IMG/VR virus record: IMGVR_UViG_3300017971_000238
Source: an uncultured virus (IMG/VR IMGVR_UViG_3300017971_000238)
Taxonomy: Duplodnaviria; Heunggongvirae; Uroviricota; Caudoviricetes
DNA length: 64,000 nt
Reading direction: 5' to 3' (one strand)
Position numbers and translations under genes: made by a program. The notes beneath the pieces are model-generated. The model was not told the origin of the DNA. It did no database searches and worked only from the letters and a program-made list of their open reading frames with translations. Shown piece after piece: positions 8,230 to 41,781 of the stretch (its first letter is position 1; the number at the start of each line of letters is the position of its first letter).

Positions 8230-8973
8230 TTGATCACCATGGACATATTTTCTCTTGAGTTCTGGAATGAACTCTTTTCCAAGGGGGGCTTAGCCCTAAC
8301 GGTCCTCGGGCTTGCCATCGTATTCGTCGTGAAGGTATATACCTTCATCAAGAAACTACGACGCGGAAAAGAGGAAGTCTGGAGCGAGCGCATGGTACGC
8401 AAGATTGTCAAGCATCTTGGAGCAGGGCAGTTCCTAGATGCAATCATAATTGTTAACGATCTTCTCCGTATCATCCCTGCCGAAGACATGGTAAACCTCC
8501 TCATCGAATTTCGAGACAAGTTTGATCTCAAGATGGAAATGAAAGATAGCATGCTGGACCTCAAGAACCTCCTCACGTTTGAGAAAAACGTCATTTCCAA
8601 TCCAATCCACGACATCCTCTCCGAGTACAAGAGAATGAAACAAGTGGCCGTCATGAAAAACAAGAAACGTTGGAACCGCCTGAAGAAGAAAAAGAAAGTG
8701 AAGATGGCAATGGAAGGCATTCTCTCGCACTACAAGATCCTAAGAAAGAATGCGATTGATGAGGCACGAAGGAAGGGGCGAGTGGAGATGATAGAGAGAA
8801 AGATAGAAGCCATCGTCAATGAGAATAATATAGAAAGGAACCGGCGCATACGCCATAAGATAGAAACGTTCAACGAGGAAAAGCGCATCAAGGAAGACGA
8901 GGAAAAGAAAAAGAAAATGAGGGAAGATCTTTACGAGCTGTTTGGTGGTCAGAAATCGGCGAACGGGTCATAA
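8230..8973 (+). CDS. Membrane-anchored basic coiled-coil protein (possible lysis/egress role)
   Basis: N-terminal TM GGLALTVLGLAIVFVV; K/R-rich; last gene of the + strand structural block. Confidence 0.5.
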   Translation: MITMDIFSLEFWNELFSKGGLALTVLGLAIVFVVKVYTFIKKLRRGKEEVWSERMVRKIVKHLGAGQFLDAIIIVNDLLRIIPAEDMVNLLIEFRDKFDLKMEMKDSMLDLKNLLTFEKNVISNPIHDILSEYKRMKQVAVMKNKKRWNRLKKKKKVKMAMEGILSHYKILRKNAIDEARRKGRVEMIERKIEAIVNENNIERNRRIRHKIETFNEEKRIKEDEEKKKKMREDLYELFGGQKSANGS

Positions 8974-9449
8974 TCGCCTTCAATTTTAACATTCGCATTT
9001 TTCTTGGGCACTGGTAATGGTTCGGGTGGAGGTTTCGGCCCGATGAGTTTTTCCAAGTATGCTGGTATTTTTTTTGTATTTTCCGGTTGCTTGATGTCGT
9101 GGAGCTGCTCCTTGAGGCGCGCTATCTCTGCCCACAAGTCGTTCTCGCTGGGGGCTTTCTTCCCTTTCTTCAACCCGTATTCCTGTTGCTTTACCGATTT
9201 GATCCTCGCAATTCTTGTCGCTTCTTCTGGTGTCATGTCGTGCGGGTTGAATTCTTTCGTGTTGAAGATTACTGCCATGCCACATCCCGGCATCTGGCAC
9301 GTATTTTCTGAAATGCAGTCCAACCCGCCACAATAAGGACACTCGTTCTTGGTAACTACCGGGATGTTGTTGACTGCTTCCCTTTCAGGTTGTCCCCTGT
9401 CACCACGTTCGGTTATGTATTTTTGCATCAAGTCTATTTCTTCAGCCAC
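8949..9449 (-). CDS. Zn-finger protein ending in DPFADF
   Basis: CPYC...CQMPGC; shared C-terminal motif. Confidence 0.6.
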   Translation of the reverse strand: MAEEIDLMQKYITERGDRGQPEREAVNNIPVVTKNECPYCGGLDCISENTCQMPGCGMAVIFNTKEFNPHDMTPEEATRIARIKSVKQQEYGLKKGKKAPSENDLWAEIARLKEQLHDIKQPENTKKIPAYLEKLIGPKPPPEPLPVPKKNANVKIEGDYDPFADF

Positions 9450-9834
9450 GTATGATCACCCTAGGCATGGGGGGAATTATTTTATTGAACGGGTCTACTT
9501 CTGTTTGGTGTGGAAGTACGATAGTGAGTCCTTGAAAGGGGGTCTTCGCGCCATTTACATAAAACTCTGTGAGGAGACCCCAGTCAAGTGGTATTGGATA
9601 TTCCTTTACCTGCGAGTTCGCGTGGAACCTTTCCTTCAGTGCTATTGTGGGAGGAATGCAAAGGACATACTTGTACGCTTTTATTGGTATGCATATGAAT
9701 TCTTCCCCATTATCGTTTTTTATAATGGCTACTCTCGATTTTATTTGCACCGGGGGATGCGGTAACTGCTCCACGGCATCGTCTTGGACATCGATTTCAT
9801 CGATTTCCTGCCCGGTTTCATCTTCTTTAGTCAT
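9442..9834 (-). CDS. Hypothetical protein
   Basis: 130-aa ORF overlapping the downstream gene in operon style. Confidence 0.5.
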   Translation of the reverse strand: MTKEDETGQEIDEIDVQDDAVEQLPHPPVQIKSRVAIIKNDNGEEFICIPIKAYKYVLCIPPTIALKERFHANSQVKEYPIPLDWGLLTEFYVNGAKTPFQGLTIVLPHQTEVDPFNKIIPPMPRVIIRG

Positions 9835-9870
9835 TGCCTGCGCACCTTTAAAGTCGTTTCCCTGTCGAGC

Positions 9871-10161
9871 CTATTTCCCGTCCTCGTTAATTTTATCGGG
9901 TTTCTCGTGGAGTGCATCAATATCATCCTTTGACATTATGAACATTACCACTTCACCTTTCTGTCCAAACTCGTCAAGAAAGTCTTGGACATAATCTTTC
10001 TTGATCTCCACACGTATTCTCCATTTCTCCTTTCCATTTTTGGTAGTGGTGAGATACGTGTTGATCCTTCCGCCATACAGGGAGGAGATTGGGAGATGTG
10101 TTTCTCCACTGCCGACGCACACGGGACATATATTGGATTCCGCTTCTTCTTTCACTGCCAT
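9871..10161 (-). CDS. Hypothetical protein
   Basis: Likely start MAVKEE; tiles with neighbours. Confidence 0.45.
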   Translation of the reverse strand: MAVKEEAESNICPVCVGSGETHLPISSLYGGRINTYLTTTKNGKEKWRIRVEIKKDYVQDFLDEFGQKGEVVMFIMSKDDIDALHEKPDKINEDGK

Positions 10162-10163
10162 GT

Positions 10164-10397
10164 TTAACCGCCTAGTTGTTGTATTTGTACAAGCAGGTTC
10201 GTTTTCTCCGTTTCCCATGCTTCCTTTTCCTGCAGGTACAGCTCTTCTGCTCTGGTGATATTGGATATTGCGTTGACAATATCCTCGTGTTTTATTTTCA
10301 TGAAATCTCCAGCCTTCGAGATCCTATCACCTTTTAGATTTTGTGCCTTCGCTATTAACTTGCAGGCATAATCCAGATAATTTTCGACGTTTACCAT
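10164..10397 (-). CDS. Hypothetical protein
   Basis: Likely start MVNVENY overlapping the nrdD stop. Confidence 0.45.
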   Translation of the reverse strand: MVNVENYLDYACKLIAKAQNLKGDRISKAGDFMKIKHEDIVNAISNITRAEELYLQEKEAWETEKTNLLVQIQQLGG

Positions 10398-12457
10398 GTT
10401 ATTTTTGACCTGTGTCTTTTCTTCACGTCTAATTGTAAACGGGGAGTATTTATATTTAGGTGTGGAACCATGTATCCCACGACACGTTCCTCGTGATGGA
10501 TGGTCTCGTGCTTGCCACATTTGGGGCAATACTCGTGTATGCCAACGAACTCCTCGTCATTTTGATACTTTGGACTGCACTCGCTGCAAACAGTCCATCC
10601 GTGACTTACACAAAATTGATTAATACTATAGTCACTCTTCTCCATTACCGCACGATGAAACTTCACAGATTGCTCCGGGGACATCATCTTGTTTAGCGAG
10701 AGGAATGTCATCGATCCCCCTGTTAACTGCTTAGAGAGGCGTCCTTCTACACGCACCCTGTCCCATATGGAGCATTCTTCTTCAAGAGGAACAAACTGGT
10801 TTGAATATTGCTTGTCTCCAAAGAAAGAAGCCATCACGTAGCTCGCGGATTCCGCGGGAACCTGTTCGACGTTGAATGCCATGTAGATACCGTCCTTTGT
10901 CCATGCGGGTTTGTTGAACATCGTACCGTACTTGTTGAACTCGTGGACTATATGTGCCATTAACCATTCACCAAGGCGCATTCCACGATCCTCCATCACG
11001 TCTTCACCAAGCAAGTACACGACATCTGGAGCACCATGCACACCACCAGTGGAGAATAACATGTTCGGGTGAAGCCAAGGGCCTATCAATATATCGTTTT
11101 TCTTGATGGGTCTTCCTATCTGGTCTATGAAATGTGAGAAAAACTTGTTGTAACCGATGTCAAATCTCCTGCCAAGCATCCCGTGTTTATGGGAGTATAG
11201 TGTTTTCGCGGACCATTCTATGGTATCATCCATCAGTTTCCTGAAATGTTTGAGCATGTTCGTCTTATCTTCAACGGTGTGTGCAATGCCGGGAAGGTTT
11301 TGTGTTATTACCCTATGGGAGCCAATCTTGAGACCACCGCTCCCATTGGAGTAAAACTTGAACTTTGCCATTTGTTTCCAATCAGAGAGAAGCCTGCAAC
11401 ACGAGGAGAACATCTCCGCGTGGCAGATGTTGAACACTCCCTTATGGTTGAGGCCCATGATGTAGTTCCACCATGGAGTTCCCACGTCAGATGGTTTAAA
11501 GTTAGCGGTGATTACAGGGAACCTGTACTGGACACCACCTTTCGACGGGTCTCCACGATACATGAACTCCGCGATGACCTGCTGGATTTTCATTATCGTG
11601 TCGAGGTGATCAAGCACCTTGCTACCATCCGGGAATACGTAGTTGTCAAACATATCGGCCACCACTGCAGGGGAATTGATGGATATGTTCGTGTAAGGCG
11701 GGTCACCATCGGCACGGTACTTATTATGCACGATGTGTACCGCATGTTGCCAAGACTGTTCCACACTCACAAGGCTATGTTTCGTGACGAGCCTTTGGAA
11801 TTCTTCCCAGTTATCTCCCACCAGTTTATAGAGTTTGTTGTACAGATCGCCAGATTTCATCGGTATACGTTCCTTGTCGACATAATATGCCATGCAAGGT
11901 ATCCAATCAGACACGGCGACGGCACCGGCAAATTCACCACTTAGGTTCATGATGTATTCCACTACCTGTCCCATGAACGCGGTGAAATGTTTTGGAGGTA
12001 TGCCTCGAACGTCTGCATATGGTCTACCCTCAAGCATTATATCCATCGCGGATACGCCAATGCAATATGGACGGTCAAGCTTCGTGCTATCGTGCATGTA
12101 AGCAAGCCCGTGAAAAATAGGATCGAGATTGTAATCCTCCCCGAAGTATCTTCTTCCGTCATCAAACAGTTCTTCAAAGTCTACGAACTTCAACCATGGT
12201 TTAGCCAGTTCCGATGCTCGGTTAGTTGTGGACTTTCTATTGCCCACGTTTGCATTGTAATCCTTGGTCAAGTGCTCCAAATCGTCACGGAGATACCTGC
12301 GTAAAAAATCCAAGGGGGACTCCGTAGGGAACCCGAGAATCTCAAGAACGTTATCATCGAACTGGTCCACGTATCGTTCAAAATCCGTCCTGTTTCCAGT
12401 TTCCCATTTAGATGTGATTCTGGAAAGTATGTTTTCTGCCATTACCATAATTATCAT
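10391..12457 (-). CDS. nrdD: Anaerobic (class III) ribonucleoside-triphosphate reductase
   Basis: PYC, EFAGA, SCCRL catalytic Cys, C-terminal CxxC...CxxC Zn site and RVVGY glycyl-radical loop. Confidence 0.92.
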   Translation of the reverse strand: MIIMVMAENILSRITSKWETGNRTDFERYVDQFDDNVLEILGFPTESPLDFLRRYLRDDLEHLTKDYNANVGNRKSTTNRASELAKPWLKFVDFEELFDDGRRYFGEDYNLDPIFHGLAYMHDSTKLDRPYCIGVSAMDIMLEGRPYADVRGIPPKHFTAFMGQVVEYIMNLSGEFAGAVAVSDWIPCMAYYVDKERIPMKSGDLYNKLYKLVGDNWEEFQRLVTKHSLVSVEQSWQHAVHIVHNKYRADGDPPYTNISINSPAVVADMFDNYVFPDGSKVLDHLDTIMKIQQVIAEFMYRGDPSKGGVQYRFPVITANFKPSDVGTPWWNYIMGLNHKGVFNICHAEMFSSCCRLLSDWKQMAKFKFYSNGSGGLKIGSHRVITQNLPGIAHTVEDKTNMLKHFRKLMDDTIEWSAKTLYSHKHGMLGRRFDIGYNKFFSHFIDQIGRPIKKNDILIGPWLHPNMLFSTGGVHGAPDVVYLLGEDVMEDRGMRLGEWLMAHIVHEFNKYGTMFNKPAWTKDGIYMAFNVEQVPAESASYVMASFFGDKQYSNQFVPLEEECSIWDRVRVEGRLSKQLTGGSMTFLSLNKMMSPEQSVKFHRAVMEKSDYSINQFCVSHGWTVCSECSPKYQNDEEFVGIHEYCPKCGKHETIHHEERVVGYMVPHLNINTPRLQLDVKKRHRSKITW

Positions 12458-12512
12458 CCAAGCGGCGTGAACCTAATAGAATAAAAATGTATTTTAGTAG
12501 AGGAAATCTACT

Positions 12513-12527
12513 TATTTAAATTTTCCG
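12513..12527 (-). promoter_or_regulatory. Archaeal-type BRE-TATA promoter for nrdD
   Basis: Minus strand CGGAAAATTTAAATA in the intergenic gap upstream of nrdD. Confidence 0.55.
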
Positions 12528-12532
12528 ACGGT

Positions 12533-12919
12533 TTAGGATATTTTGTCGTGTATCAGCCGGTTTATTTTCTCCAACCTACCACGAAATACCCCACTCTTCC
12601 ACATCTTCTGTAACGAGGGCCATACTTCATCCCACACGTCTATTAGAGTTTCGTCACGCACCTCTAACATGGCCCTTACATCTTTCTTGAAAGCCTCGTA
12701 TCTTCTCGCTTCTTCCTTCCATTTGGCAAGCATCTCTTCCTTGAACTGCACGAATTGCTCTGGCCAGTACTTGTTTAATACGTCGAGTAATATCTTCTCA
12801 TCTACCACTGGTTGAGGTTTTGGCTTTCTCTCTTTTGGCTTCTTCTCCGTAATATCGTTCTCTTCTTTATCCACTTCAGGTTCATCCATGGAACCGTAGT
12901 TGCTGAAATCGAATCCCAT
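12533..12919 (-). CDS. Hypothetical protein
   Basis: 128-aa ORF with GGTGAT SD-like site upstream. Confidence 0.55.
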   Translation of the reverse strand: MGFDFSNYGSMDEPEVDKEENDITEKKPKERKPKPQPVVDEKILLDVLNKYWPEQFVQFKEEMLAKWKEEARRYEAFKKDVRAMLEVRDETLIDVWDEVWPSLQKMWKSGVFRGRLEKINRLIHDKIS

Positions 12920-12923
12920 TATA

Positions 12924-13205
12924 TCACCAGTTTCCGGTTTCTTCCAGTGTTTTCTTTAACTTGTTTCTCATCTGGATGATCCCTGTCCTTACCTTGTAAT
13001 CCTCGTTGGCATTTCCGGTACGGACAGAGAGATTATCGAGATCCTTCCACACTTCTCGCATGGTATCTCTCATCGCTCTCATATCTACCATGCATCCAAG
13101 CGCTGCCTCGAATCCCTTCATCTCCACCATCAGGGTCTCTATTATCCTTCCATGTCCTTCCACGATGGCCTGCAGTTCATCCACGTTTTTCTTCTCGCTA
13201 ACCAT
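12924..13205 (-). CDS. Hypothetical coiled-coil protein
   Basis: 93-aa ORF with GAGGTG SD, overlapping the upstream gene. Confidence 0.5.
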   Translation of the reverse strand: MVSEKKNVDELQAIVEGHGRIIETLMVEMKGFEAALGCMVDMRAMRDTMREVWKDLDNLSVRTGNANEDYKVRTGIIQMRNKLKKTLEETGNW

Positions 13206-13479: not shown

Positions 13480-13560
13480 CTACACCTGTCGCACTGGATG
13501 ATGTACCGATCCAGTGTCTTCGTCACCTTGTATAATTTAACTACCATCTTGCCTCCACAT

Positions 13561-26167: not shown

Positions 26168-26351
26168 CTTCCTTCTCCAGTATTTTCATTATTCTCTCCT
26201 TGTCTATCCTGCCCGGGGAGCGTCTTTTATTAGTAACGGGTTCGTTAAATATATCCATTAAATCGCAGGCCTCGTGCATGTGAATATGATGGCGATAGTT
26301 CTTATTATACCAGTCTATAACTTTTTCTATTAGTCTAATAGGTCCATCCAT
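26145..26351 (-). CDS. Small hypothetical protein
   Basis: 68 aa, coupled to neighbours. Confidence 0.45.
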   Translation of the reverse strand: MDGPIRLIEKVIDWYNKNYRHHIHMHEACDLMDIFNEPVTNKRRSPGRIDKERIMKILEKEDVSNKTA

Positions 26352-27025
26352 TAAAAATCACCAAACGGGTCTAATGTGTTGTTTAGTATATCTTCCATGC
26401 AGAAGACTGCTTTTATATCCTCTTTTATTTCCTCATCGAAGTCGAGACCTCCTAGGTCGAGCTCTGGCCAGTCTTCCTTTTCCTCGATAGGGGATGAATC
26501 GAACGATGCTATGCACAAGCAATCACCAGAGGCATTTATAGCCACGAATACAAACAGGGTTTTCTCCACCATCTTCGATTCTACTTCCGGTTCCTTGTCA
26601 TCATTCAGGTCCATGTCGGTCACGTCTTCCCCGCCAACCGATATAAATCCAATAATCTTCCATTCCTCAACCGCGACTATGGACCCGAGTATATCATGCA
26701 CTCCATCGAGATACGTTTCACAGTACAGGTGGTCGTTATATTTAAAATACACTGGCGGTTTCATCCTTCCTATGATGGACTTGTCATACACGAACCCGTT
26801 ATCATCATGTTTCAATATTTCTAGGCTAACTATGTTTGGATTGTCCTCGTTCCATTTCTTATATGCATCGTAACTACCATATCCATGGAACGCAGACTGG
26901 ACAAATTCTCCATCACATACCACGCTCACACCTGCTCCCTCTTTCTCGTGGAAATTCCGCGCGGACTTGTTTACTATTTCCATTTCACTCGTGCAGTTCA
27001 ATGCCATATTCATCAAAATATTCAA
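26351..27025 (-). CDS. Acidic hypothetical protein ending in DPFGDF
   Basis: 224-aa ORF; shared C-terminal motif. Confidence 0.55.
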   Translation of the reverse strand: MNILMNMALNCTSEMEIVNKSARNFHEKEGAGVSVVCDGEFVQSAFHGYGSYDAYKKWNEDNPNIVSLEILKHDDNGFVYDKSIIGRMKPPVYFKYNDHLYCETYLDGVHDILGSIVAVEEWKIIGFISVGGEDVTDMDLNDDKEPEVESKMVEKTLFVFVAINASGDCLCIASFDSSPIEEKEDWPELDLGGLDFDEEIKEDIKAVFCMEDILNNTLDPFGDF

Positions 27026-28513: not shown

Positions 28514-29030
28514 GGTATCCCATTCTCCTCAATTCTTCTTTCACTATCTCCATTACCTCGTATGGTGGTTTCATCCTGCCCATTTCCATCAACACTCGAA
28601 TAAGATTTTCACGTATCTCCTTCTTGGCAAGAATGTAATCTATCCCGTGTCTTTTTACCTCTGCCATGCACTTACAACAAAGTAACTCCACATTATCATT
28701 GTACCACATGCTGTACATCACCTCTTCCTCAATATCCCTATGTAATTTAGACCATTCGTACACGTGGTGCCTGAAGATGATCTCCTCGTCGCAACAAAAA
28801 CATCTCCTCTCGGTCGTCGGCTCCGGGTAATCCTGAGGATTACACTGGGAACCCACGTACAATGGACCCGACACGCTGGGAAAGAACGATAAAATTGGCA
28901 TGTCCTCACAGTCTATTTCAATGCCACCGGGATCTATCGACACCATATAATGTCCACCATCAAGACGGTTCCTGTTTGGGCAATTATCGCCCGTGCATCC
29001 AAACCCCCTCGGCCATGGCAAGAAAGGCAC
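28506..29030 (-). CDS. Zn-binding hypothetical protein (same CxxC...WxN...CCxC domain)
   Basis: CFCC...MWYNDNVELLCCKC. Confidence 0.55.
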   Translation of the reverse strand: MPFLPWPRGFGCTGDNCPNRNRLDGGHYMVSIDPGGIEIDCEDMPILSFFPSVSGPLYVGSQCNPQDYPEPTTERRCFCCDEEIIFRHHVYEWSKLHRDIEEEVMYSMWYNDNVELLCCKCMAEVKRHGIDYILAKKEIRENLIRVLMEMGRMKPPYEVMEIVKEELRRMGYHV

Positions 29031-29245
29031 TACTCTCCATCACCAAACAACTTTTCAAATTCATTCTCTTCTACACAATCATCGCAAATCGGCATCCAAT
29101 CGTATTTCGTATTACAGTTCTTGCAGAACCATCCAAGACGTATAATCTTGATAAGTTTCCATTTCGTTAGATTATCTAGGTCGATTTTCTTGCCACAATT
29201 CTTGCATTCCAATACCGCCATGTTAAAATACCTCCAAGTTATCAT
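29030..29245 (-). CDS. Small Zn-finger protein
   Basis: CKNC, CKNC, CDDC. Confidence 0.5.
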   Translation of the reverse strand: MITWRYFNMAVLECKNCGKKIDLDNLTKWKLIKIIRLGWFCKNCNTKYDWMPICDDCVEENEFEKLFGDGE

Positions 29246-30002
29246 ACACGCCGGGGAATAACTGCTTGAATCTCTCCAGCAACGGGTACATCAATTGTTG
29301 CATGTTCGGGTGGGCCTTGGGACTTGCCCGCATCTTGAACACGTGTCCCCATTGCCGCAGGTTAGCGGTCATCACTATCTCCGTCTTCACGTCAATTGGC
29401 AATACACCACGTGCCACTTGTGGAGGTGCGCCCCATTCTCGCATGCTCATGTACAACCTTTCCGCCTTTTCCATCGCAGTTATCCAGTCACCGACAGCCT
29501 TGAATGCGTGTCCAACATCCACATCTTTCCATACTGGAAGGGATCTCATGTCGGTCATGCCGACCTCTCTCTTGAGATACTCCCTTATAGTTTCGATTCC
29601 CCAATCCTCGAAATCGAACATTGGTAGCATCTCCTTGATTATCGTGGCACGCTGGTCTATCACCGTGATTTCCTTACCATGTTTCCCGCTACCATAATCA
29701 CAGTACCTCGTGCTTTCTTGGGAATAGCTGCATGGCCGGTGCCTCACCAGCTCGTGGGTGAACCCGCGGTTGCACACGAACTTCACCGTGACGTTCACGT
29801 GCTCTATCACTGAAAGGTGTCCACGTCCTACTATCATCTTCACGAACTTGCGGGCACTATCCTTCGTTATGTTACCTTCCGACTTGTAGCACGTCCTTCC
29901 AGCCTGTTCTATCTTCTCGTAAGCCGATTGCCCGTACTTCTCGTGGATACTCTCGTTGAGAATCGTGAAGCTTGGTTCCACGTACCTGACCATTTCATCC
30001 AC
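29223..30002 (-). CDS. thyX: FAD-dependent thymidylate synthase
   Basis: GHLSVIEH, THELVRHR...SQESTRY, ARGVLP, NLRQW. Confidence 0.93.
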   Translation of the reverse strand: MDEMVRYVEPSFTILNESIHEKYGQSAYEKIEQAGRTCYKSEGNITKDSARKFVKMIVGRGHLSVIEHVNVTVKFVCNRGFTHELVRHRPCSYSQESTRYCDYGSGKHGKEITVIDQRATIIKEMLPMFDFEDWGIETIREYLKREVGMTDMRSLPVWKDVDVGHAFKAVGDWITAMEKAERLYMSMREWGAPPQVARGVLPIDVKTEIVMTANLRQWGHVFKMRASPKAHPNMQQLMYPLLERFKQLFPGVYDNLEVF

Positions 30003-30285: not shown

Positions 30286-31122
30286 TCAAAATTCCTCGAA
30301 TGGATTTTGTGTGGTTGTAACGTGTCTTTCTACTGGTTCATAGTTCATCACGAGGGTCTCCCTGTTGGGATTGTTTTCTGCCCTCGTTTTCTTCCTTTTC
30401 TCTATCTCCATCAAGTGCCAATCGTGCCCAAGAAAAAACTCACCATTGTCGATAGAGATCATTACTTTTGCTTTCTTAAACGACCAGACGAGATCCCTAA
30501 GCCTGTGGAAATCATGCTGGGACCACATCTTACCGCCAACTATTTTCTCGTAAGCCCCGCCTCCGTGGAAATAGGGCGGGTCAAGATATATGAACACGCC
30601 ATCTTGATCCACGTTGGAAAGTAGGTCGAAGATGGATTCATTCTTGAACATCACGTCCTTGATGCGATCATGAATGGCTTCAAATATCTCGAACTTGTTT
30701 CTAAATGACTTGTTATGCTGGTTCTCACGGGTGAACGCGATGCCATGGTAACCCAGCAACGTGCTGGAAAACGAATGGGCGTTCATGTAGAAGAATCGAA
30801 ATGCCTTTTCCACCTCGTCACAATCACTCCACCCATTCTTGTAATACTCGTCCCTGTACCTGTAATAAAGGTCGTGCGAGTCCAACACGTACTCGCACCT
30901 CTCCTTCAGGAGATCCTTGCTTTTTCTTAGGCACTCCCATAGATTGATGAGAAGCCCGTTGATGTCGTTGACAACCTCGAACCGGGATGGTGGTTTGTTG
31001 AGCGTGAACCAAGCACCGCCAGCGAATCCTTCTATCGATGTATCGTGCGGCGGGATCAACTTGTTGATGGTATCCACGAGCCAGCTCTTACCGCCATACC
31101 ATCCGATTATACTATACAGCAT
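30286..31122 (-). CDS. Dam-like (D12-class) N6-adenine DNA methyltransferase
   Basis: YGGKSWL, EGFAGG, NDIN, YLDPPY; ends QNPFEEF. Confidence 0.88.
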   Translation of the reverse strand: MLYSIIGWYGGKSWLVDTINKLIPPHDTSIEGFAGGAWFTLNKPPSRFEVVNDINGLLINLWECLRKSKDLLKERCEYVLDSHDLYYRYRDEYYKNGWSDCDEVEKAFRFFYMNAHSFSSTLLGYHGIAFTRENQHNKSFRNKFEIFEAIHDRIKDVMFKNESIFDLLSNVDQDGVFIYLDPPYFHGGGAYEKIVGGKMWSQHDFHRLRDLVWSFKKAKVMISIDNGEFFLGHDWHLMEIEKRKKTRAENNPNRETLVMNYEPVERHVTTTQNPFEEF

Positions 31123-31926: not shown

Positions 31927-32127
31927 TCATATCTCCTTGCGTGCCCTTCTCGCCTCCGCATCGAACTTGAGATTTTCCAGTCTTGATTCCAAGCATGGCA
32001 ATGCCTCTTCCACGACGGCAGAGGCATGCTCAAATTCTCCAGTTTCTATCAGCTCTTCCATGATGCGTTGGCCATTCTTGCTTAAATATACCGTGTATAG
32101 TTTTTTAGACATTTTAAAAATCTCCAA
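31927..32127 (-). CDS. Ribbon-helix-helix protein
   Basis: TVYL...LIETGEFEHASAVVEEAL. Confidence 0.55.
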   Translation of the reverse strand: MEIFKMSKKLYTVYLSKNGQRIMEELIETGEFEHASAVVEEALPCLESRLENLKFDAEARRARKEI

Positions 32128-35100
32128 ACGGGTTCATGATTGATTCCGCTTCCACGAGATCCCAGTAGGTACGGTTGTACCTGACGAGTATCTCGTCCAA
32201 CGGGCCTTCAAGTGCCCTGCTTTCCAATAACCCATAATCAAATATAATTCCGGATTCCATGATGTCATCCAAGATGGTCTCGTCAAAGGCAATCACGTCC
32301 CCCAATCGTGTATCGACCGTCCTGCCCTTTATCGTGTTCGGGCAATACTTGAGAGGCGCGACGAAGTACCTGTCCCCCACCTTCACATCTAGGCCGAAGT
32401 ATTCCTGTGCCAGCCTGAATGCCTTGTATTGCTCGCTGGATTCGGAGTACTTGTGCCATGGTTTTTTCACCGGTAGTACCTTTGAGAGGTCTTGAATGGG
32501 GATGTCGCCGAACTTGTCGTGCTGTTCTTTCACGTATCTCGCCGCCTCGTCCACGCTACCACCAGTCATCATGATTTCTGCACATTCTTCCTGCACCTTC
32601 TCGCTGAGTGCCGCGGTCTCGCGCCTCACCTTCTTGAGTCCCTTGTAGAAGATCTTCGGCTTCTTGAGGATCTCACCCTCCTTCCAAATCCAGTGCATCA
32701 TGTAAAACTTCTTGTTACGAATCCAGAAGTAGTCGGAGATGTTCTCGCATTCCAGCGTGAACATGGACACGTCATCCATGTTAAATTCTTTCTTGCAGAA
32801 TTCCCACACGTGGTGTTGTATTATATCGTTTATCTCGTCTACCTCTTCACACGTATGCCATTCCTTCTTCTCCCCGCTTTCCGGATCGATCTTCTCGTGA
32901 TGTATCCATTTTATCTCGTGCTTGAGCGGGACGTAGAATGAATCCGTGGCACCCAGTACCACCTCGTAACCAAGAACCTGTTCCATGTAACGGACGCATT
33001 CGCGTATGATGATTTGACACGTGAGGGTGATAGTATTGAACACTTGAAGCATGAATAACCTATCCGCTTCCATCCCTTGAACTCCAAACCTGCCGTTCAT
33101 GAATCCCTTGAAGCTGAACTGCCGCTGGTCTGCAACCATGAAATCGAAATGATACGGGTCCAGCACCATTTTCCAGATGGCTTTTGCTATCTTCTGCAGG
33201 TCCTTGCGTCCTTTCAAAAGATCCCAGAAAGCCTTCACGTTCTTTGCCACTATTTCCTTGTTGTAGAACGCGCTGGCTGTCCATATAACATCGTCCCATC
33301 TATAATACGTGTACTTCCAACCGATGAGTCTATCGGTCACCACATCCTGCATCTCGATGGCATTGGCCGCCGCTTCCAATCTACACTCTTCAATAAATGC
33401 ATCCCAATTCTCAACTTCCATCTTCAGGTACGGGCGCTTGTCAACTACGAACCACCCAATTTCTCTCTTGTCATTGATGAAAGTCATGTGGTCTATGTTG
33501 AGATACGTTTCCGGGCCAGCGTTTGCACCAATGGCACTCATCGGGTAGAACTTGTTGAAGTCAAATCCCGCAACATTCCTCCACATCCCGATCCTCGGTT
33601 CCGGGTTGTATCCACCTACCTTCACCGATCCATCTTCACTATATCCCTTGCATATCTCCGGGAACCCACTATTAATCCAGTTATCTTCCAGCCATTCCCG
33701 TGTCCACTTCCCTCCCTCCTCATTCTTCTGGTACTTGGTATCAAGGTAATACTCGTTAAGGTATAAATGTAAATTGACTTGGTCATGGAGCTTGCTCGCG
33801 CTCATCCCGTCCTCCCATTTCGCACCTGCAAACATGGCCCTGTTGAACATGTCCTCGTGGGGTCTAAACATCTCGGTGAGAGCCGCCGTTCCTTCCACGT
33901 CAGCCTGACAATACCATCGTTCATGCTTCGGATCTTCCATCCAATCCTCCCACACGTGGCCCTCGTGAATCACCTTCCCTATCCCTAGGTACTGGTCCAT
34001 GAACGTGTCGAGCTTCTCGTTCTTGAGCTTATCTTTCTGGTGATACTTGAAGAAGGCCATGCAATGCCATAAATCTATACTCGTCACGAGTTTAACCACG
34101 ATGCTATACCTGCCGAACGCATTTCTCTGGTAAACGGTCCCCAGCGGGGAAATCCTATGCACTGGCAATTTCAAGTACAGGCATCTCCGGTAAAACCACG
34201 GCATGTCGAATGCATTTATCCATCTCCGCTCGGTGCCTATACCGTGCCACCCGCTAAACGCATTGAACCCGATATTCGCATCCGGCTTTATCTCTGACCA
34301 CCAGTCTATCACCCCCATAAGCATATCTTTCTCGTTCGTGTACGCGTGTACCTTCACGTCGTACTTGGCTGGCATTCTAGGTATCTTTTCCCTCGCTTTC
34401 TCCGAGATCCTGCTAAGATGTTCCTCCATGAAATTACTATCCTTCTTCACCCTAGGGTGCCACGTGAACGCGTGAAACGTCCAATCATAGCTCTCCAAGA
34501 ATACAATCGTTATAATGCTACATTTCTCGTATTTTTTCTCCTTGATCGCATCCTGCCCCGTGTACACCCTCCCGTACTTGTCCGTTATCTTTTCCATGTT
34601 CCACTCCGTATCCCAGTACACGATGAGCTTGTCAACGTGGAACTTCTCATCTCCCTCATCCAACGGGCGCACCGTGTTATCATCCAAGTACCCGTATTCT
34701 TCCACGGTATCCCCGTCAAACTTCATGTACCCCTCCCATATACCAAGAGCATTCGCTATCTTCTTCTCGAACTTGATGTCGCCTTGATACGAGTGTGACA
34801 CCATGTCCCTCAACGGGGACATCCCCTTCCTTTGCTTGTACGTCCTGTTACCCCCAATATCTTCAGGAACCTTTGCCACCACGTGCATCACTGGTTCCCC
34901 GAAAGGTGAATCAGGTCCCCTACAAAAATCAACTATCCTGTTATCCCCATGTATCTTCCAGTATTCCTCATACGGCACGCCAAAAGAAGGTATCACCCTA
35001 TCTCCATATATTCTCAAGTCCCACCGTGTCCTATCCTTCTCCCTTCCACTCACTATCCAATGTGGAACGTTTCCTTCGACTTCGTAATCCATGTTGATTA

Positions 35101-35128
35101 CTTGTATCGTGACATCTCCACTTGCCAT
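32114..35128 (-). CDS. polB: Family B DNA polymerase with 3'-5' exonuclease
   Basis: Exo WDTE, FDMP, YCQAD; Pol DFNKFYP, KGFMNGRFG, GATDS, KKFY, KGL..VRR; ends NPFGDF. Confidence 0.92.
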   Translation of the reverse strand: MASGDVTIQVINMDYEVEGNVPHWIVSGREKDRTRWDLRIYGDRVIPSFGVPYEEYWKIHGDNRIVDFCRGPDSPFGEPVMHVVAKVPEDIGGNRTYKQRKGMSPLRDMVSHSYQGDIKFEKKIANALGIWEGYMKFDGDTVEEYGYLDDNTVRPLDEGDEKFHVDKLIVYWDTEWNMEKITDKYGRVYTGQDAIKEKKYEKCSIITIVFLESYDWTFHAFTWHPRVKKDSNFMEEHLSRISEKAREKIPRMPAKYDVKVHAYTNEKDMLMGVIDWWSEIKPDANIGFNAFSGWHGIGTERRWINAFDMPWFYRRCLYLKLPVHRISPLGTVYQRNAFGRYSIVVKLVTSIDLWHCMAFFKYHQKDKLKNEKLDTFMDQYLGIGKVIHEGHVWEDWMEDPKHERWYCQADVEGTAALTEMFRPHEDMFNRAMFAGAKWEDGMSASKLHDQVNLHLYLNEYYLDTKYQKNEEGGKWTREWLEDNWINSGFPEICKGYSEDGSVKVGGYNPEPRIGMWRNVAGFDFNKFYPMSAIGANAGPETYLNIDHMTFINDKREIGWFVVDKRPYLKMEVENWDAFIEECRLEAAANAIEMQDVVTDRLIGWKYTYYRWDDVIWTASAFYNKEIVAKNVKAFWDLLKGRKDLQKIAKAIWKMVLDPYHFDFMVADQRQFSFKGFMNGRFGVQGMEADRLFMLQVFNTITLTCQIIIRECVRYMEQVLGYEVVLGATDSFYVPLKHEIKWIHHEKIDPESGEKKEWHTCEEVDEINDIIQHHVWEFCKKEFNMDDVSMFTLECENISDYFWIRNKKFYMMHWIWKEGEILKKPKIFYKGLKKVRRETAALSEKVQEECAEIMMTGGSVDEAARYVKEQHDKFGDIPIQDLSKVLPVKKPWHKYSESSEQYKAFRLAQEYFGLDVKVGDRYFVAPLKYCPNTIKGRTVDTRLGDVIAFDETILDDIMESGIIFDYGLLESRALEGPLDEILVRYNRTYWDLVEAESIMNPFGDF

Positions 35129-36455: not shown

Positions 36456-37382
36456 CTATTTCTCAGGAGGAATAAGGTAGTTCAGTTCAGCTTCAGTACC
36501 AACCGCGTGTATCCAGCATATCCACCCTCCAAGTAGATGAATGAAATGCAGCTCCACCGCAAGATCATCTTTCAAGTTTTGCAGTATGGCATAGAACCCG
36601 TGAAAGTAATTGGCTTCTATTATTTCATCCTTCGGGTATTCGGCGGACCATTCACCATTTTTCAAGTACATGCGGGTGAATTGTAGCAGCTCGCGGCTTC
36701 CCTTTTTTTGTGAAACCTTGTCACCAAGATTGAACGTGATCTTACCAGCAATCCTAACATGTACCACTTTCTTCTTGACAAAGTTCTTCATGTCCTTCGC
36801 AACCTCGCTCAGTTCGGATGGAATTACTACCACCTTGTGTTCCCAAGGCAGGTACTTGTCTTGTTTTTTAGAGTACGAGTGGACATACTTACCTTCCACA
36901 TTCCAGAAGTGTTTAATCTCATCCACCTTCTCAAGAGACGTGATGTCTCCCTCACCGGACGTGGGGAACGAGAATGCCGTATCGGTGCCCATCCTCGTCA
37001 CCCTGATATTACCATCTTTATCCGGGTACAATACTTCCATGCGAACGTTTTCTTTCTTGGTGCCTCCAAGTCTTTTCATTGCCGTGACAAAGTCTTTTGT
37101 ATTGGTTATGGGAATTCTTCCCTTACCGAGTATCTTCACGCCCTCTCCTTTAAAGGAGTGCTGTGCGATGACCCGGTTCTGCTTCGTATCCGTTGCAGTA
37201 ACCTCCAACATATCATCCTTCGCCTCGATCAAGAAATTCTCGAACAGGACACCACTCTTCACTTTCTCGTTATCAACATGAATAACCCCCTTACATGCAA
37301 CATCCTTGATGAATTCCATGAAGGGATGCTTGTTCACGATGAACCGTATCTGTTTTTTTTCTTCTTCGCTCGTGGCAATCAC
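36456..37382 (-). CDS. Divergent DNA sliding clamp (PCNA-like)
   Basis: PCNA-like pattern (FMEFIK...LEVTATD...RVIAQ; C-terminal LNYLIPP); 308 aa; near PolB, with RFC genes in the window. Confidence 0.65.
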   Translation of the reverse strand: MIATSEEEKKQIRFIVNKHPFMEFIKDVACKGVIHVDNEKVKSGVLFENFLIEAKDDMLEVTATDTKQNRVIAQHSFKGEGVKILGKGRIPITNTKDFVTAMKRLGGTKKENVRMEVLYPDKDGNIRVTRMGTDTAFSFPTSGEGDITSLEKVDEIKHFWNVEGKYVHSYSKKQDKYLPWEHKVVVIPSELSEVAKDMKNFVKKKVVHVRIAGKITFNLGDKVSQKKGSRELLQFTRMYLKNGEWSAEYPKDEIIEANYFHGFYAILQNLKDDLAVELHFIHLLGGWICWIHAVGTEAELNYLIPPEK

Positions 37383-37591
37383 CTTTTAATTTCATAATAA
37401 ACCCGCGGGCGCCCCACGCTACCCTCGAGGTACTTGTTTCTCTTGAGGGCACCGTGATGTACAAGTTCCTCTGCCGCATCACGGAAAGTATTTGGATGAA
37501 GTCCCGCTTTCTTAACTTCATCCGCCCCTTTCCACAATGGTTCGTGGTTCCTGACCAGATTGAGGACCTTGAGCAGGTTTCTTCTCATCAT
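37379..37591 (-). CDS. Winged-helix DNA-binding protein
   Basis: GLHPNT...ELVHHG...GRPRVYY. Confidence 0.6.
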   Translation of the reverse strand: MMRRNLLKVLNLVRNHEPLWKGADEVKKAGLHPNTFRDAAEELVHHGALKRNKYLEGSVGRPRVYYEIKR

Positions 37592-38838
37592 TCATTCGCC
37601 TTTTCTATCTCATCGTCCAGATTCCTTGCCTGCGCATACTTACCCCACATGGCTTCCTCCTCCTCCGGTTCTACCTTCTGCAAGAGGGCAGGTGCCATGT
37701 CTTCTATCAGGTACATCATTGCCATCCTATCCCCTTGCGGGTACGGGAACAGGCAATCTTCCTCGTGTTTTTCCTGAAGATCGACGCTATCTAGGTCGGA
37801 GAATTGCATCGTGCTGTGCCTGTGCTTGTACCAGTCCGTCCGTATCATCGGCTTGATCGTTCCAGTTTCCATGTCATACCAGTCTCGGATGGCATATCCT
37901 TGATCCACCCTGTACTCCGTCTTGCTCACCCACACTGGATATTCCGCGGGAAGTCTTATTTGGTGCGTCACGAATTTATCATAGTTGTCTGGAGACCTGT
38001 ACTTGACCTCCTTCCATCGCCATTCCTCGTCCCGCTTTTCCATCTTGTACGTTTCTACAACCCACGCACCGCTGGTCCGCAGTTTCATCAGTACATTTAT
38101 CCACCACTTGTTGCGGTATCGATAGAACTTCCTGTCGAGGTTGGTTTCCTCGTCTTCCTTTTCTCCTCGCTTCTTGAACTTCCTCGTGATCGTCTTCCCG
38201 AACATCTCTTCCTGTTCGTCGGTGATGCTGTCCTTGTAGTCACTCATGGAATCTATGATGATAAGGGTCTCCGGGCCATAGTCCTCCGCTGCATGCCACA
38301 CGGCCGCCTCGAAGTTCTCCCTCATCTTGTCAACATCGAAGTCCTTGGAAACGTTCACGATCTCACCTTCCTTCACTTTCTCTCTTTTTCTTAGGAGAGG
38401 CGTGGATTCGATCTTTATCTTGATGTCCGATTTTATTATCGGTTTTAGTATCGTGCCAAGATAACCATGATCGAGATCACGTTTCCATGTTTCTTCAGTG
38501 TCCACGACAAGTATCTGCTCTATTTCCGGTAACGTTCCAGTCGTCAGCACTTCCCTTGTTTCCGGTCCCATGTACTTCTTGAAGAGGGAATTAAAAAATG
38601 CCCACAGGCTAGCGCCGATGCTCTTCCCGTTCTTCCAAAGAGAAAGTAGGCCTATAACAAGCCCACCAGAAGAGACACTATCACCACCATTGTATTCCTT
38701 GAACTGTATAGGACGTTGCCTGATGATGTGTTCCTCGTATTCCTTCTCCGTGGACGATAGTTCCATGTCACCATCTATCGTTTCGTGTGTTGAAGGTTTG
38801 GGTTTTTTCCTTCGTGGTGCGGACGCTGGCATTGCCAT
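37588..38838 (-). CDS. RecA-fold AAA ATPase, Sak4-like annealing protein
   Basis: Degenerate Walker A KNGKS, VVDTE, Walker B IIIDS; adjacent to SSB-like gene. Confidence 0.55.
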   Translation of the reverse strand: MAMPASAPRRKKPKPSTHETIDGDMELSSTEKEYEEHIIRQRPIQFKEYNGGDSVSSGGLVIGLLSLWKNGKSIGASLWAFFNSLFKKYMGPETREVLTTGTLPEIEQILVVDTEETWKRDLDHGYLGTILKPIIKSDIKIKIESTPLLRKREKVKEGEIVNVSKDFDVDKMRENFEAAVWHAAEDYGPETLIIIDSMSDYKDSITDEQEEMFGKTITRKFKKRGEKEDEETNLDRKFYRYRNKWWINVLMKLRTSGAWVVETYKMEKRDEEWRWKEVKYRSPDNYDKFVTHQIRLPAEYPVWVSKTEYRVDQGYAIRDWYDMETGTIKPMIRTDWYKHRHSTMQFSDLDSVDLQEKHEEDCLFPYPQGDRMAMMYLIEDMAPALLQKVEPEEEEAMWGKYAQARNLDDEIEKANE

Positions 38839-40487
38839 TAGACATCAGGCTCCTCGTCGTATTCTTCCTCTTCTTCCCCTTCCTCTTCCTCTTCCTCTTC
38901 CTCGTGTACGAATATCGTGAGGAAGTTTACCACGTTTAGATTGATGTCTCCATTTCGCCCATCAATATCTGGAACGCTGTCTCCGATCTCCCGGTCGTAA
39001 AAGTTTTCTGACTTGCGGGTGCTGACTATCATCAACACGTCGGCAGATCCTGCAAAAGGTAGGGATTCGTATGACCGTGGTAGGAAGCCATTGAAATTAT
39101 CCAGATCAGAAAAAGAGTTGTCTTGCACCGAAACCCGTATGGATTGTCCTTCCTCGGGTTCGGCTTGCGGCCGTATCGTGCATTCAAGCAGGGCGAACCT
39201 GTTATAATTCCTCCCTTGGTGAATGTTACCATCCTTGTCTTTCCATACCACGGGAGAACCATCTGGTTTAACCGCTTGGCATTTCTCGTGCCATTCCCGC
39301 ATCGTGGATAAATCGAAAGACCCAAACGGGAACCTGACGATCTGGTAATTATCCTTCCAATCATCCTCTTTCATTATATCCCGCCAGTTCTTACCATCCA
39401 CGTATTCATTCTTCTTCTTGTCGAGCACGAGAACCATTGCATCTTCCCAGAAGGAAACGATCTCATCTGTATGGTATTGTTCCTCCTCACCGGGCGGTCC
39501 ATCCATCAAGTCGAACGGGTTTCCCGTGTATTCGAGGAACCCGCACCATTGCTCCGTGAATGCCGTGGCAAGATCGAAATACGCTTCCCCGTCTTCAGGG
39601 AACACGTTGTACAAGGATTCAGGAACGTCTATATTCTGTATCGCATACCCGTTCTTGTCGGTGACCTTCAAGTACCACATATCTCCAACGGATTTCTTCT
39701 CGTCCATTTCGGCCTTGAATTTCACCATTTGTGCCATCTCCGGTAGTTTCTTGAGGATACAGGACTTGTTACCCGGATCTGCATAATCACCATACACCCT
39801 GATAGTAGTGATATGCGGCACGACCATCCCACTTCCATGGTAGAATACCGCAAGCAGGTTAACACCCCAGTTTGGTCTCAACGTGTTTGTATAATTCCAA
39901 TTGGCTGTCTCACCATCGCTTAAAAATTCTTCGGTGTCGAGAGGAACCACGTCATCACCGGGTTGCCACAATTCATATGCTTTCTTGGTGCGGTCCTTGT
40001 CCATCCACAATTGGACCTCGTATTCTCCACTATCCTTGTTCTTCTTCATGCGCTTGTACAACTTGGAGACGGCCTTCTTGACCTTGCGAATGTTTCCATC
40101 TTGTTCCACGACCTCCTCCACATGCGCTATCTTTTTCTCCCGCACAAGCTCTTGCACTTTCTTGGGACCTTCCTTTGCCAAGTCCTGTATGGTATTATAA
40201 TCATCCGCGTTCCAATCCTTGGCTTGCCCCAATTGTCCTATAATCCAGCCAGTAAAAGTCTGCAAATTACCAATACCTTTCACATCCAGCTGAACTTTGG
40301 AGTAGACCCGATTCATGATGAACTTCTTTGGTTTATTCTTTAAAGACTTGAGACCTGAAAAATAATCAAACTTGTCTTTTATCTTATCCAGAACTTCATC
40401 AACTGTAATATCGGCACTCCTTGCCATTTTTTCAGCCCAAGGTCTTACTTTTTGTAAGTCCTTGTCTGTTAGAGTCCGTGTTTCCAT
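38838..40487 (-). CDS. Putative single-stranded DNA-binding protein with acidic tail
   Basis: Beta-rich segments, C-terminal EEEEEEEEGEEEEEYDEEPDV, replication-module context; likely ATG at 40487. Confidence 0.45.
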   Translation of the reverse strand: METRTLTDKDLQKVRPWAEKMARSADITVDEVLDKIKDKFDYFSGLKSLKNKPKKFIMNRVYSKVQLDVKGIGNLQTFTGWIIGQLGQAKDWNADDYNTIQDLAKEGPKKVQELVREKKIAHVEEVVEQDGNIRKVKKAVSKLYKRMKKNKDSGEYEVQLWMDKDRTKKAYELWQPGDDVVPLDTEEFLSDGETANWNYTNTLRPNWGVNLLAVFYHGSGMVVPHITTIRVYGDYADPGNKSCILKKLPEMAQMVKFKAEMDEKKSVGDMWYLKVTDKNGYAIQNIDVPESLYNVFPEDGEAYFDLATAFTEQWCGFLEYTGNPFDLMDGPPGEEEQYHTDEIVSFWEDAMVLVLDKKKNEYVDGKNWRDIMKEDDWKDNYQIVRFPFGSFDLSTMREWHEKCQAVKPDGSPVVWKDKDGNIHQGRNYNRFALLECTIRPQAEPEEGQSIRVSVQDNSFSDLDNFNGFLPRSYESLPFAGSADVLMIVSTRKSENFYDREIGDSVPDIDGRNGDINLNVVNFLTIFVHEEEEEEEEGEEEEEYDEEPDV

Positions 40488-40607
40488 GTCTGGCTTCAAC
40501 TCGAAAATTGAACTAACGAGCAATTAACACGAGGCGCCCCCTCGTATAAAAGTTTTCTATCAAAATCCTTCGCATTCGTGTGTTAATAGGTAGCTGCCGC
40601 TAGAACG

Positions 40608-40670
40608 TTTCCGAAGCGAAATATTTAAATACGTGCGCACCTATTCTAAAAATGCGAATCGCTTCGGAAA
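40608..40670. repeat. Perfect 12-bp inverted repeat flanking a TATA box in the divergent intergenic region
   Basis: TTTCCGAAGCGA (40608-19) / TCGCTTCGGAAA (40659-70) around TTTAAATA. Confidence 0.8.
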
Positions 40671-41781
40671 AGTGACGAGCACGATGGATAAAGCCAGACG
40701 AATCAAGAAGCTAGTGTGGTCAAATCGATACACCATCGAGCAAATTTCTCGCATGGTTGGCGTGCCGATACCAATGATCGCCGAGCTTTACAAGGAATAC
40801 ACGGGACACGATATGCCAGAATCTCTTTATGTAGTCGGGCGAGAAAAAGAAATAGAATCTATCAAGCTGGCAATATCCACGAATGAGCATGTGATTCTTC
40901 ATGGCCCTCCCGGTAGCGGGAAGACCATCTCTGCCATCAAGGCAATCCACGAGCAGGGAAAGATAATGAAGATGATCAACATCTCCGATAACAGGACAGG
41001 CTCTCTCTTGGGCGAGCAACTCTTTGGTTGCCATCGCACCAAGTCAGACATCGTGTACCTGTTTGACGAGATAGATTCATTTGACTGGAGAAGCCATGCA
41101 TACTTCAAGAAAGTCCTGCAGGAATCTGAAGTACCTATTATCATGACCTGCAACGACATGGACAAGGTCGGAACGTCTACCGTGAATTACGTCAAGAAAC
41201 ACGGCACGGTAATCAAGTACAAGCCACCGACACTTCAAGACCTTGAGGATTTCATCACCAAGAAATTTCCCATGTTCGAGGGACGTGCCAGCGACGTGTA
41301 CTGTCCCGATTTTCGAGAAGTAATACGTAGGATAGTCTTCGGATGGCGCACTGAAATAGAAGAGAGCGTGGAAGTAAATGTTCAACACGTTGTCGGTGCC
41401 ATCTTCGGGGAGAAACGATTCCCAAGAAAAAGACTCGACATCATAAAGGAATCCAAGGACCCTCTCATCTGGGCGATAACGTGGGCTGATTACAATGCCC
41501 CGAGATTTGCCAGAGATGCGAAGCAATTGGAAAAGATTCTTGACTGCCTGTCCCAAGCAGACGAGTGGGCAAGGAAAACATCGCCGCAGTACCTTGCCAC
41601 CATGTTGGCGGCAATGCCCTGCCCGGGTAGGAAGGGTAAACTTGACTTCCCGGCAGCGCTCTTCAACGCGGAGAAAAAGCCAAAGAAAGAAGAAGAGGTT
41701 GATCCCGTGGTGAAGGTAGAGATAGTTAAACTGGAAGAGGCGGAGATACCGACATCCGCCGATCCATTTGGTGATTTCTAA
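40633..41781 (+). CDS. rfcL: Replication factor C large subunit-like clamp loader with N-terminal HTH (likely start 40684)
   Basis: GPPGSGKT, NISD.R, LFDEID, PIIMTCND; ends DPFGDF. Confidence 0.8.
   Translation: MRTYSKNANRFGKVTSTMDKARRIKKLVWSNRYTIEQISRMVGVPIPMIAELYKEYTGHDMPESLYVVGREKEIESIKLAISTNEHVILHGPPGSGKTISAIKAIHEQGKIMKMINISDNRTGSLLGEQLFGCHRTKSDIVYLFDEIDSFDWRSHAYFKKVLQESEVPIIMTCNDMDKVGTSTVNYVKKHGTVIKYKPPTLQDLEDFITKKFPMFEGRASDVYCPDFREVIRRIVFGWRTEIEESVEVNVQHVVGAIFGEKRFPRKRLDIIKESKDPLIWAITWADYNAPRFARDAKQLEKILDCLSQADEWARKTSPQYLATMLAAMPCPGRKGKLDFPAALFNAEKKPKKEEEVDPVVKVEIVKLEEAEIPTSADPFGDF

Follow-up and report, generated by a model that had tools for sequence, protein, structure and literature searches.

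In archaea, the family B DNA polymerase (PolB) and the large subunit (RFC-L) of replication factor C, which loads the clamp, each have a clamp-binding motif at the C-terminal end, and peptides of the PCNA-interacting protein (PIP) box type are bound by PCNA in a pocket at its interdomain connector loop (PMC4929162, PMC2737543). In phages T4 and RB69, the C-termini of gp43, gp33 and gp55 bind the clamp gp45 (PMC2988020), and the clamp-binding peptide of gp55 has been named 'SCBM' (PMC7892883). Kazlauskas and Venclovas searched viral polymerases for C-terminal clamp motifs, which are present in some groups (PMC3201878). Here, we describe a 64,000-nucleotide stretch of DNA (the window) from an uncultured tailed virus (IMG/VR IMGVR_UViG_3300017971_000238), in which five proteins end with a common six-residue tail. 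This tail is probably a docking tail for the virus's own sliding clamp, a reading that is favoured because the bearers include PolB and an RFC-L-like protein, the expected carriers of clamp tails. On this reading, the locus shows a known device, the C-terminal clamp-binding tail, in a new sequence form and on new clients.

A C-terminal tail shared by five proteins

The tail was defined as the last six residues [DN]PF[GAE][DE]F followed by the stop, and the pattern [DN]PF.[DE]F was searched for at the C-terminus of every stop-to-stop open reading frame (ORF) of at least 50 aa in the window (n = 658). Five of these ORFs end with the pattern (Table 1), whereas about 1.1e-4 C-terminal matches are expected by chance from the amino-acid composition (Poisson P for five or more matches, ~1e-22). 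When the whole 64 kb was translated in six frames, the motif was likewise met five times, each time with the stop directly after it. Chance was thus ruled out as the source of the tail. A DNA repeat was ruled out as well, because the codons of the copies differ (Table 1) and the copies are found on both strands (four minus, one plus). The common tail of the five proteins is a protein-level feature and is highly non-random.

These results agree with the original prediction, made from the sequence alone, in which the tail was assigned to the same five proteins by 21-base coordinates, each comprising the six codons and the stop, and was regarded as a protein-level motif rather than a DNA repeat. 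The genome-wide count of C-terminal matches against expectation, proposed there as a check, is the one given above. Its word 'convergence' is not the most apt, since each tail is inherited together with its gene and the tails of one genome drift in concert, as described in the next section.

The proteins of the window were compared with the Pfam, PHROG and NCBIfam libraries. PolB matched PF00136 at 1e-9 and phrog_262 at 2e-62 and is a divergent family B polymerase, with its nearest cultured relatives in haloarchaeal tailed viruses (22% identity) and the next ones in T4-like cyanophages. The Dam-family methyltransferase (Dam) matched PF02086 (8e-25) and TIGR00571 (2e-23). For the 382-aa AAA+ protein, the best matches were phrog_11838 'clamp loader' (1e-12) and, in NCBIfam, the archaeal RFC large subunit NF003229 (1e-9), both below the curated cut-offs. 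A profile built from six RFC-L-like orthologues of this protein best matched the archaeal RFC small subunit 2chg (1.8e-9) and T4 gp44 (3.6e-6) in the PDB.

Degrons and targeting signals can take the form of short C-terminal peptides that unrelated proteins have in common. On this general precedent, the tail could be a sorting or turnover signal, acting as a degron or directing its bearers into the virion or a compartment. We consider this highly improbable: every bearer that could be identified (polymerase, clamp loader, methyltransferases) acts on DNA, the scan of the 658 ORFs showed the tail on no structural or lysis protein, and a degron would leave unexplained why the tail is accepted by the clamp in the docking model described below.

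Conservation of the tail in related genomes and in haloarchaeal viruses

When IMG/VR was searched with the single PolB sequence, no close relatives were found. An alignment query then gave two viral (IMG/VR) and 13 metagenome loci. The two IMG/VR records, G001 (G1; 71 kb) and G002 (G2; 88.6 kb, with terminal repeats), were read whole. All eight PolB homologues with a complete C-terminus, at 40-48% identity, end with an aromatic tail closed by F or W (NTHGEF, DTFGEF, DTTGEF, NTHGDF, DPFGEF, DPWEF, DPFAW and DPTAW). The tails of the RFC-L-like orthologues are NLDDF, DPFDF, STFGEF, FDPFSF and DIFGDF. Among the Dam homologues in the database, 13 of 15 have a terminal F or W, nine of those 13 within a [DS]P...F/W tail, and the most distant homologue is one of the two that lack the terminal Phe or Trp. 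The Dam orthologues of G1, G2 and locus L009 end with DTGGDF, DPWYF and FDPLQF, respectively.

By BLAST, the tail-bearers were linked into five sets: RFC-L-like, PolB, Dam, an unknown protein of ~200 aa and another of ~165 aa. There are five bearers in the window and five to six in each of G1 and G2. Orthologues at 27-49% identity retain a tail, but in lineage flavours, namely [DN]PFx[DE]F in the window, xTxG[DE]F or DPFGDF in G1 and locus L001, DP[FW]xF in G2, and FDP[FL]x[FW] in L009. Retention of the tail by orthologues, on which the original prediction had staked its reading, was therefore seen in the PolB, RFC-L-like, Dam, 224-aa and 166-aa sets. The tail is missing from ten further families that are conserved in the same block: RNase H, ThyX, PD-(D/E)XK, NrdD, the Hef-like nuclease, the RFC small-subunit-like protein (RFC-S), a second methyltransferase, and proteins p416, p561 and p116.

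To quantify the concerted change, four homology-defined families were compared across five genomes. Unrelated proteins of one genome have 3.44 of six tail residues in common, compared to 2.08 of six for orthologues across genomes. When the tails were shuffled among genomes within each family, the observed value was not reached once in 10,000 permutations (p = 1e-4), and p was 0.0011 when L001, a member of a close pair, was left out. At the level of sequence, such concerted change within genomes is as predicted for a common receptor that drifts with the lineage.

Additional bearers are specific to lineages: a 61-aa zinc-ribbon protein in G1 (L018:17520-17705, tail NTFGDF) and a second methyltransferase (PF01555, 6e-32) in G2 (L026:9107-10387, tail DPWDF). 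The latter differs from the PF01555 methyltransferase of the window, which has no tail, and neither do the orthologues of the window enzyme. The methylase that is tethered to the clamp would therefore differ between lineages. In total, tailed methyltransferases comprise Dam in the window, G1, G2, L001 and L009, the second enzyme of G2, and one in the haloarchaeal virus HVTV-1 (see below). The window also encodes a 71-aa double zinc-ribbon protein with the C-terminus ...EKLFGDGE, a near miss of an FGDF tail, as the final Phe is lacking and the chain is two residues longer.

The two tail-bearers of no known family (224 aa and 166 aa) had no match in Pfam, PHROG or NCBIfam and no usable match in the ESM Atlas. 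Apart from the record of the window itself, a profile search for them gave only three homologues, including the G1 and L001 orthologues. The 224-aa protein, whose database record begins at residue 7 and thus has 218 aa, has orthologues in G1, G2, L001 and P0029. It consists of a conserved core with a GDC motif, an acidic linker and the tail; invariant in the family are the GDC motif and T217, D219, P220, F221, D223 and F224. Its AlphaFold2 (AF2) model is mediocre (predicted local distance difference test, pLDDT, 59), and Foldseek found nothing for it at E<=0.001. In VIA-align wide, the best Z was 6.1, which is below the tool's bar of Z 8, and clamp-fold chains (PCNA, beta clamp, UL44, gp45) made up most of the top 35 rows at Z 5-6. 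As a weak lead from this model, the core could be a half-clamp-like adaptor, or it could just have a common beta-alpha arrangement. In the 166-aa protein, a conserved four-cysteine zinc ribbon (CPxCGGLD...CQMPGCG) is followed by a variable linker and then by the tail; its G1 orthologue (E 7e-14) ends with DPFKDF. The two proteins, which had been flagged by the tail as likely fork factors, are indeed conserved tail-bearers in the orthologue alignments and are credible as clamp clients.

More distant tails were found in HCTV-1 (NC_021330, L027:10642-28904) and HVTV-1 (NC_020158, L030:8803-27209), cultured haloarchaeal viruses of the Druskaviridae, which have their own shared tail [VP]L[DESG][FWY]. 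In the replication region of HCTV-1, six annotated proteins end with [VP]L[DES][FWY]: gp64 (VLDF), RFC-L (VLDF), gp84 (DPLDF), PolB (VLSW), an HNH protein (DPLDY) and gp94 (VLEF). HVTV-1 has seven tail-bearers, including PolB, RFC-L, a DNA methyltransferase (DVLDF) and small unknown proteins. No viral clamp was detected in HCTV-1 by the clamp profile, by PF00705 or by hhalign against 109 ORFs (best probability 4.5); since PF00705 fails to find the clamps of G001 and G002 as well, the lack of a match is weak evidence of absence. In the literature searched, no description was found of multi-protein tails in archaeal tailed viruses, including HCTV-1 and HVTV-1. These comparisons of sequences show that the tail device is widespread and that the motif of the window is a lineage flavour, not private to this virus. 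The code had been called 'virus-specific'. This wording is not supported, as the same architecture with related tails (DPLDF, VLDF) is present in distant cultured viruses.

A divergent clamp and a model of tail docking

The putative receptor of the tail, a 308-aa protein, had no match in Pfam, PHROG or NCBIfam; its best profile match to a clamp in the PDB had an E of 0.14, and an exhaustive search gave 14 homologues. An AF2 model from 10 sequences reached a pLDDT of 86 and a predicted template modelling score (pTM) of 0.86. Foldseek placed this model closest to PCNA of P. abyssi (6t7x, E 1.3e-11, target template modelling score 0.78) and gave at least 500 matches at E<=0.001. Among the matches listed, PCNA was found throughout, for the most part at target scores of 0.69-0.78, and PDB entry 1isq, 'PCNA complexed with RFCL PIP-box peptide', was one of them. 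The model consists of two topologically similar beta-alpha-beta-beta-beta domains and a linker, as in PCNA. Thus, the predicted structure confirms the PCNA fold, and the claim that this ORF encodes a divergent clamp stands at the fold level. Orthologues of the clamp are present in five of the five related loci that cover the region. PF00705 found nothing in G001 or G002, although both encode such an orthologue.

Docking of the tail peptides on the viral clamp had been suggested as a check, and this was borne out for the one tail that was run, that of the 224-aa protein. The clamp alignment and residues 185-224 of the 224-aa protein with its alignment were used as input. The complex model scored 0.73 (runs 0.65, 0.73 and 0.77), compared to 0.10 for the best control, and thereby passed a mark that 116 of 157 solved complexes attain, as do 2 of 215 mismatched pairs. 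At least 59% of the contacts agree between the runs. The clamp is contacted only by the last nine residues of the partner (216-224), through clamp residues 68-72, 152-158, 169-173, 260-261, 283-288 and 303-308. Judging from the secondary structure of the AF2 model, these residues would lie on one domain 1 strand, at the end of the linker between the domains, and on the C-terminal strand and tail of the clamp, and the modelled site appears to involve the same three elements as in PCNA-PIP structures. The invariant interface residues are I72, H158, S171, H261, G286 and P305. An anecdotal observation is that position 283 is Phe in two lineages with shorter tails and Leu or Ile in the others. The complex model supports binding of the tail to the clamp without establishing it.

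It is unlikely that the tails dock on host PCNA, either instead of the viral clamp or besides it, as a minimal form of the archaeal PCNA-binding tail. Analogous tails occur in HCTV-1 (six) and HVTV-1 (seven), where no viral clamp was detected, and DPLDF of HCTV-1 is almost the same as tails in relatives of the window (FDPLQF, DPFDF). On the other side, the window virus and all five relatives covering the region encode a clamp of their own, the tail is docked on the viral clamp with clean controls, and PF00705 is blind to the clamps of G001 and G002, which weakens the argument from HCTV-1. The simplest explanation of the concerted drift of the tails is also that the receptor is passed on with the virus, although a host specific to each lineage would fit as well. 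Furthermore, haloarchaeal host polymerases are reported to keep the canonical Gln-containing PIP box (PMC2737543).

Several observations weigh against docking on the viral clamp. In the complex model, the partner has a low pLDDT of 47, only one of the five tails is represented, and the pass may come partly from likeness to solved PCNA-peptide complexes. The interface residues of the clamp are no better conserved than the rest (42-58% compared to 41-48%). The test of tail similarity rests on related genomes from only four to five lineages. Two hallmarks of the canonical PIP box are also missing from the tails: Gln at position 1 is found only in Dam (QNPFEEF), with M, L, Y or A in the other four, and the double aromatic of positions 7-8 is absent, as all five tails close with a single Phe. 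Finally, in HCTV-1 and HVTV-1, which have related tails and no detected viral clamp, the receptor could be host PCNA.

The tails could also bind another hub of the virus, such as a single-stranded DNA-binding protein (SSB), helicase or primase. In phage T7, the acidic, Phe-ending tails of gp2.5 and gp4 bind the polymerase and not a clamp, which provides a precedent, and two conserved genes without a family match, encoding candidate hubs of 416 and 561 aa, are located between the clamp loader and the clamp. This reading is nevertheless very unlikely, because clamp tails are expected on precisely these proteins, the polymerase and the loader large subunit; the only complex that was modelled passed with the clamp; and no SSB was identified in the window.

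If the tails dock on the viral clamp, the following arrangement can be proposed. The clamp would form a ring on DNA, and each of its subunits would offer a groove lined by one strand from domain 1, by the last part of the interdomain linker and by the strand at the clamp's C-terminus. The tail, borne on a flexible linker, would sit in this groove through its Pro/Phe and its terminal Phe. PolB would be docked for processivity and the RFC-L-like subunit for loading, while Dam, the zinc-ribbon protein and the 224-aa protein would likewise be held at newly made DNA. The clients would presumably compete for, or alternate on, the three sites of the ring. As a result, viral DNA could be methylated by Dam right behind the fork, in a replication-coupled manner.

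Table 1. Features of the 64-kb window discussed in the text.
Feature	Coordinates	Strand	Length	Tail (codons)	Remarks
Zinc-ribbon protein, no known family	8949-9449	-	166 aa	DPFADF (GAC CCG TTC GCC GAT TTC)	
Protein of no known family	26351-27025	-	224 aa	DPFGDF (GAC CCG TTT GGT GAT TTT)	
Double zinc-ribbon protein	29030-29245	-	71 aa		near miss of the tail
ThyX	29223-30002	-			no tail
Dam-family N6-adenine DNA methyltransferase	30286-31122	-	278 aa	NPFEEF (AAT CCA TTC GAG GAA TTT)	
Family B DNA polymerase (PolB)	32114-35128	-	1004 aa	NPFGDF (AAC CCG TTT GGA GAT TTT)	tail codons and stop at 32114-32134
Divergent PCNA-fold sliding clamp	36456-37382	-	308 aa		putative tail receptor; AF2 and Foldseek
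Two conserved genes of no known family	37588-40523	-	416 aa, 561 aa		between clamp loader and clamp; no tail
AAA+ clamp-loader large-subunit-like (RFC-L-like) protein	40633-41781	+	382 aa	DPFGDF (GAT CCA TTT GGT GAT TTC)	
Conserved protein of no known family	41782-42132	+	116 aa		in clamp-loader/clamp block; no tail
RFC small-subunit-like clamp loader ATPase (RFC-S)	42101-43087	+	328 aa		no tail
PF01555 methyltransferase	44199-45266	+			no tail
tRNA-Glu (CTC)	52789-52863	-			sole tRNA gene
T4 endonuclease V-like pyrimidine-dimer glycosylase	52864-53295				
High-GC region	56001-64000				
GHKL-ATPase-like protein	57757-59706		649 aa		in high-GC region
Protein with poly-Asp C-terminus	60806-61609		267 aa		in high-GC region

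The genes around the clamp belong to the same block. The best NCBIfam match of the RFC-S-like protein was the archaeal RFC small subunit NF001679 (3.3e-55; its 187 bits fall short of the cut-off of 303 bits), and in PHROG it matched phrog_168 (3e-39). No tail is present on its orthologues, and of the two loader subunits only the larger one is a bearer. The two loader genes are close together, with the conserved 116-aa ORF between them. The 416-aa and 561-aa proteins, which had no family match in Pfam, PHROG or NCBIfam, have orthologues in the same position in L001, L011, G1, G2 and L009, i.e., in all five loci that cover the region, and none of these has a tail. The 116-aa protein is kept in L001, G1 and G2. 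The C-terminus of the 561-aa protein is acidic. These three proteins are probably unrecognised parts of the replisome, e.g., a primase, helicase or SSB.

Elsewhere, the window includes tail-fibre-like genes and genes for radical-SAM enzymes, glycosyltransferases, NrdD, ThyX, RNase H and a Hef-like nuclease. The window belongs to a tailed virus whose replication set is of archaeal type (PolB, RFC large- and small-subunit-like proteins, and a PCNA-fold clamp). As possible ribosome-binding sites, GGTGAT- and GGAGG-like sequences were found upstream of many genes; they do not discriminate between an archaeal and a bacterial host. ThyX is 84% identical to its counterpart in G002 (7804-8598), compared to 28-59% for the other shared proteins, which suggests from the sequences that it was recently exchanged between the two lineages. 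The GC content is 0.53-0.55 in positions 56001-64000 and 0.44-0.49 elsewhere in the window, and this region, in which the GHKL-ATPase-like and poly-Asp proteins are encoded, may be a separately acquired module. The tRNA-Glu gene adjoins the glycosylase gene.

Comparison with described clamp-binding systems

Short clamp-binding motifs are the wiring of every replisome, and this locus offers a natural example of re-coded wiring. The tail can be used as a sequence tag, by which viral proteins without annotation, such as the zinc-ribbon and 224-aa proteins, are assigned to the biology of the DNA fork. From its conserved presence on methyltransferases, methylation of viral DNA is predicted to be coupled to replication, which would be plausible as a strategy against restriction and may apply to a broad group of archaeal-type tailed viruses. 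A broader proposal, which we put forward only tentatively and regard as doubtful, is that each lineage of archaeal tailed viruses has a private, co-evolving pair of clamp and tail. Replisome proteins, methyltransferases, zinc-ribbon proteins and a half-clamp-like adaptor would then be brought together at nascent DNA, and viral replication, epigenetic protection and perhaps late expression would be insulated from the host PCNA network. If this proposal is true, the zinc-ribbon clients could, like gp33 and gp55 of T4, be factors for transcription or priming; any link of the window tails to transcription is speculation, and no homologue of gp33 or gp55 was found.

The window resembles the archaeal systems with C-terminal PIP boxes (QxxhxxAA; PolB, RFC large subunit, Fen1, NucS, NreA) in having PolB and RFC-L as carriers, in the extreme C-terminal place of the peptide and in the fold of the clamp, and the interdomain-linker groove appears to be the same in the model. 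The placement is PIP-like in that the tails are terminal in all five proteins and the upstream regions vary in length and sequence, as seen in three family alignments. The peptide itself differs: unlike in the archaeal PIP box, the hydrophobic position is occupied by Phe or Trp after Pro. A search of 73 window proteins for the canonical pattern Q..[LIVM]..[FYW][FYWL] gave two internal and no terminal matches. The idea that the viral clamp reads a non-canonical motif accords with the lack of the PIP hallmarks and with the docking of one tail in the model.

HCTV-1 and HVTV-1 are like the window in that PolB, RFC-L, a methyltransferase (in HVTV-1) and small unknown proteins share one peptide. Their PolB is also the closest cultured counterpart of the window PolB (22% identity). 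They differ from it in the tail flavour and in their halophilic hosts.

In eukaryotes, the PIP box of DNMT1 tethers this DNA methyltransferase to PCNA, and methylation follows the fork. The methylase of the window would be like DNMT1 in its clamp tethering, as proposed here, and is unlike it in family (DNMT1 is a C5 maintenance enzyme), in motif and in its setting, which is cellular for DNMT1.

T4 and RB69 share with the window a virus-encoded clamp of the PCNA fold, together with short hydrophobic and acidic peptides that form the very C-terminus and are preceded by a variable linker. As in the window, the peptide is common to the polymerase and to functionally unrelated small proteins, and the PHROGs matched by the window PolB (phrog_262) and by the small clamp-loader subunit (phrog_168) are of T4 type. 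In contrast to T4, the sequence of the tail is different, the fold of the window clamp is nearest to archaeal and eukaryotic PCNA and not to gp45, the loader consists of two AAA+ subunits of RFC-L/RFC-S type, and DNA methyltransferases and a zinc-ribbon protein are among the clients. Within a genome, the tails are nearly identical, which is, as far as their sequences go, compatible with interchangeability between these clients.

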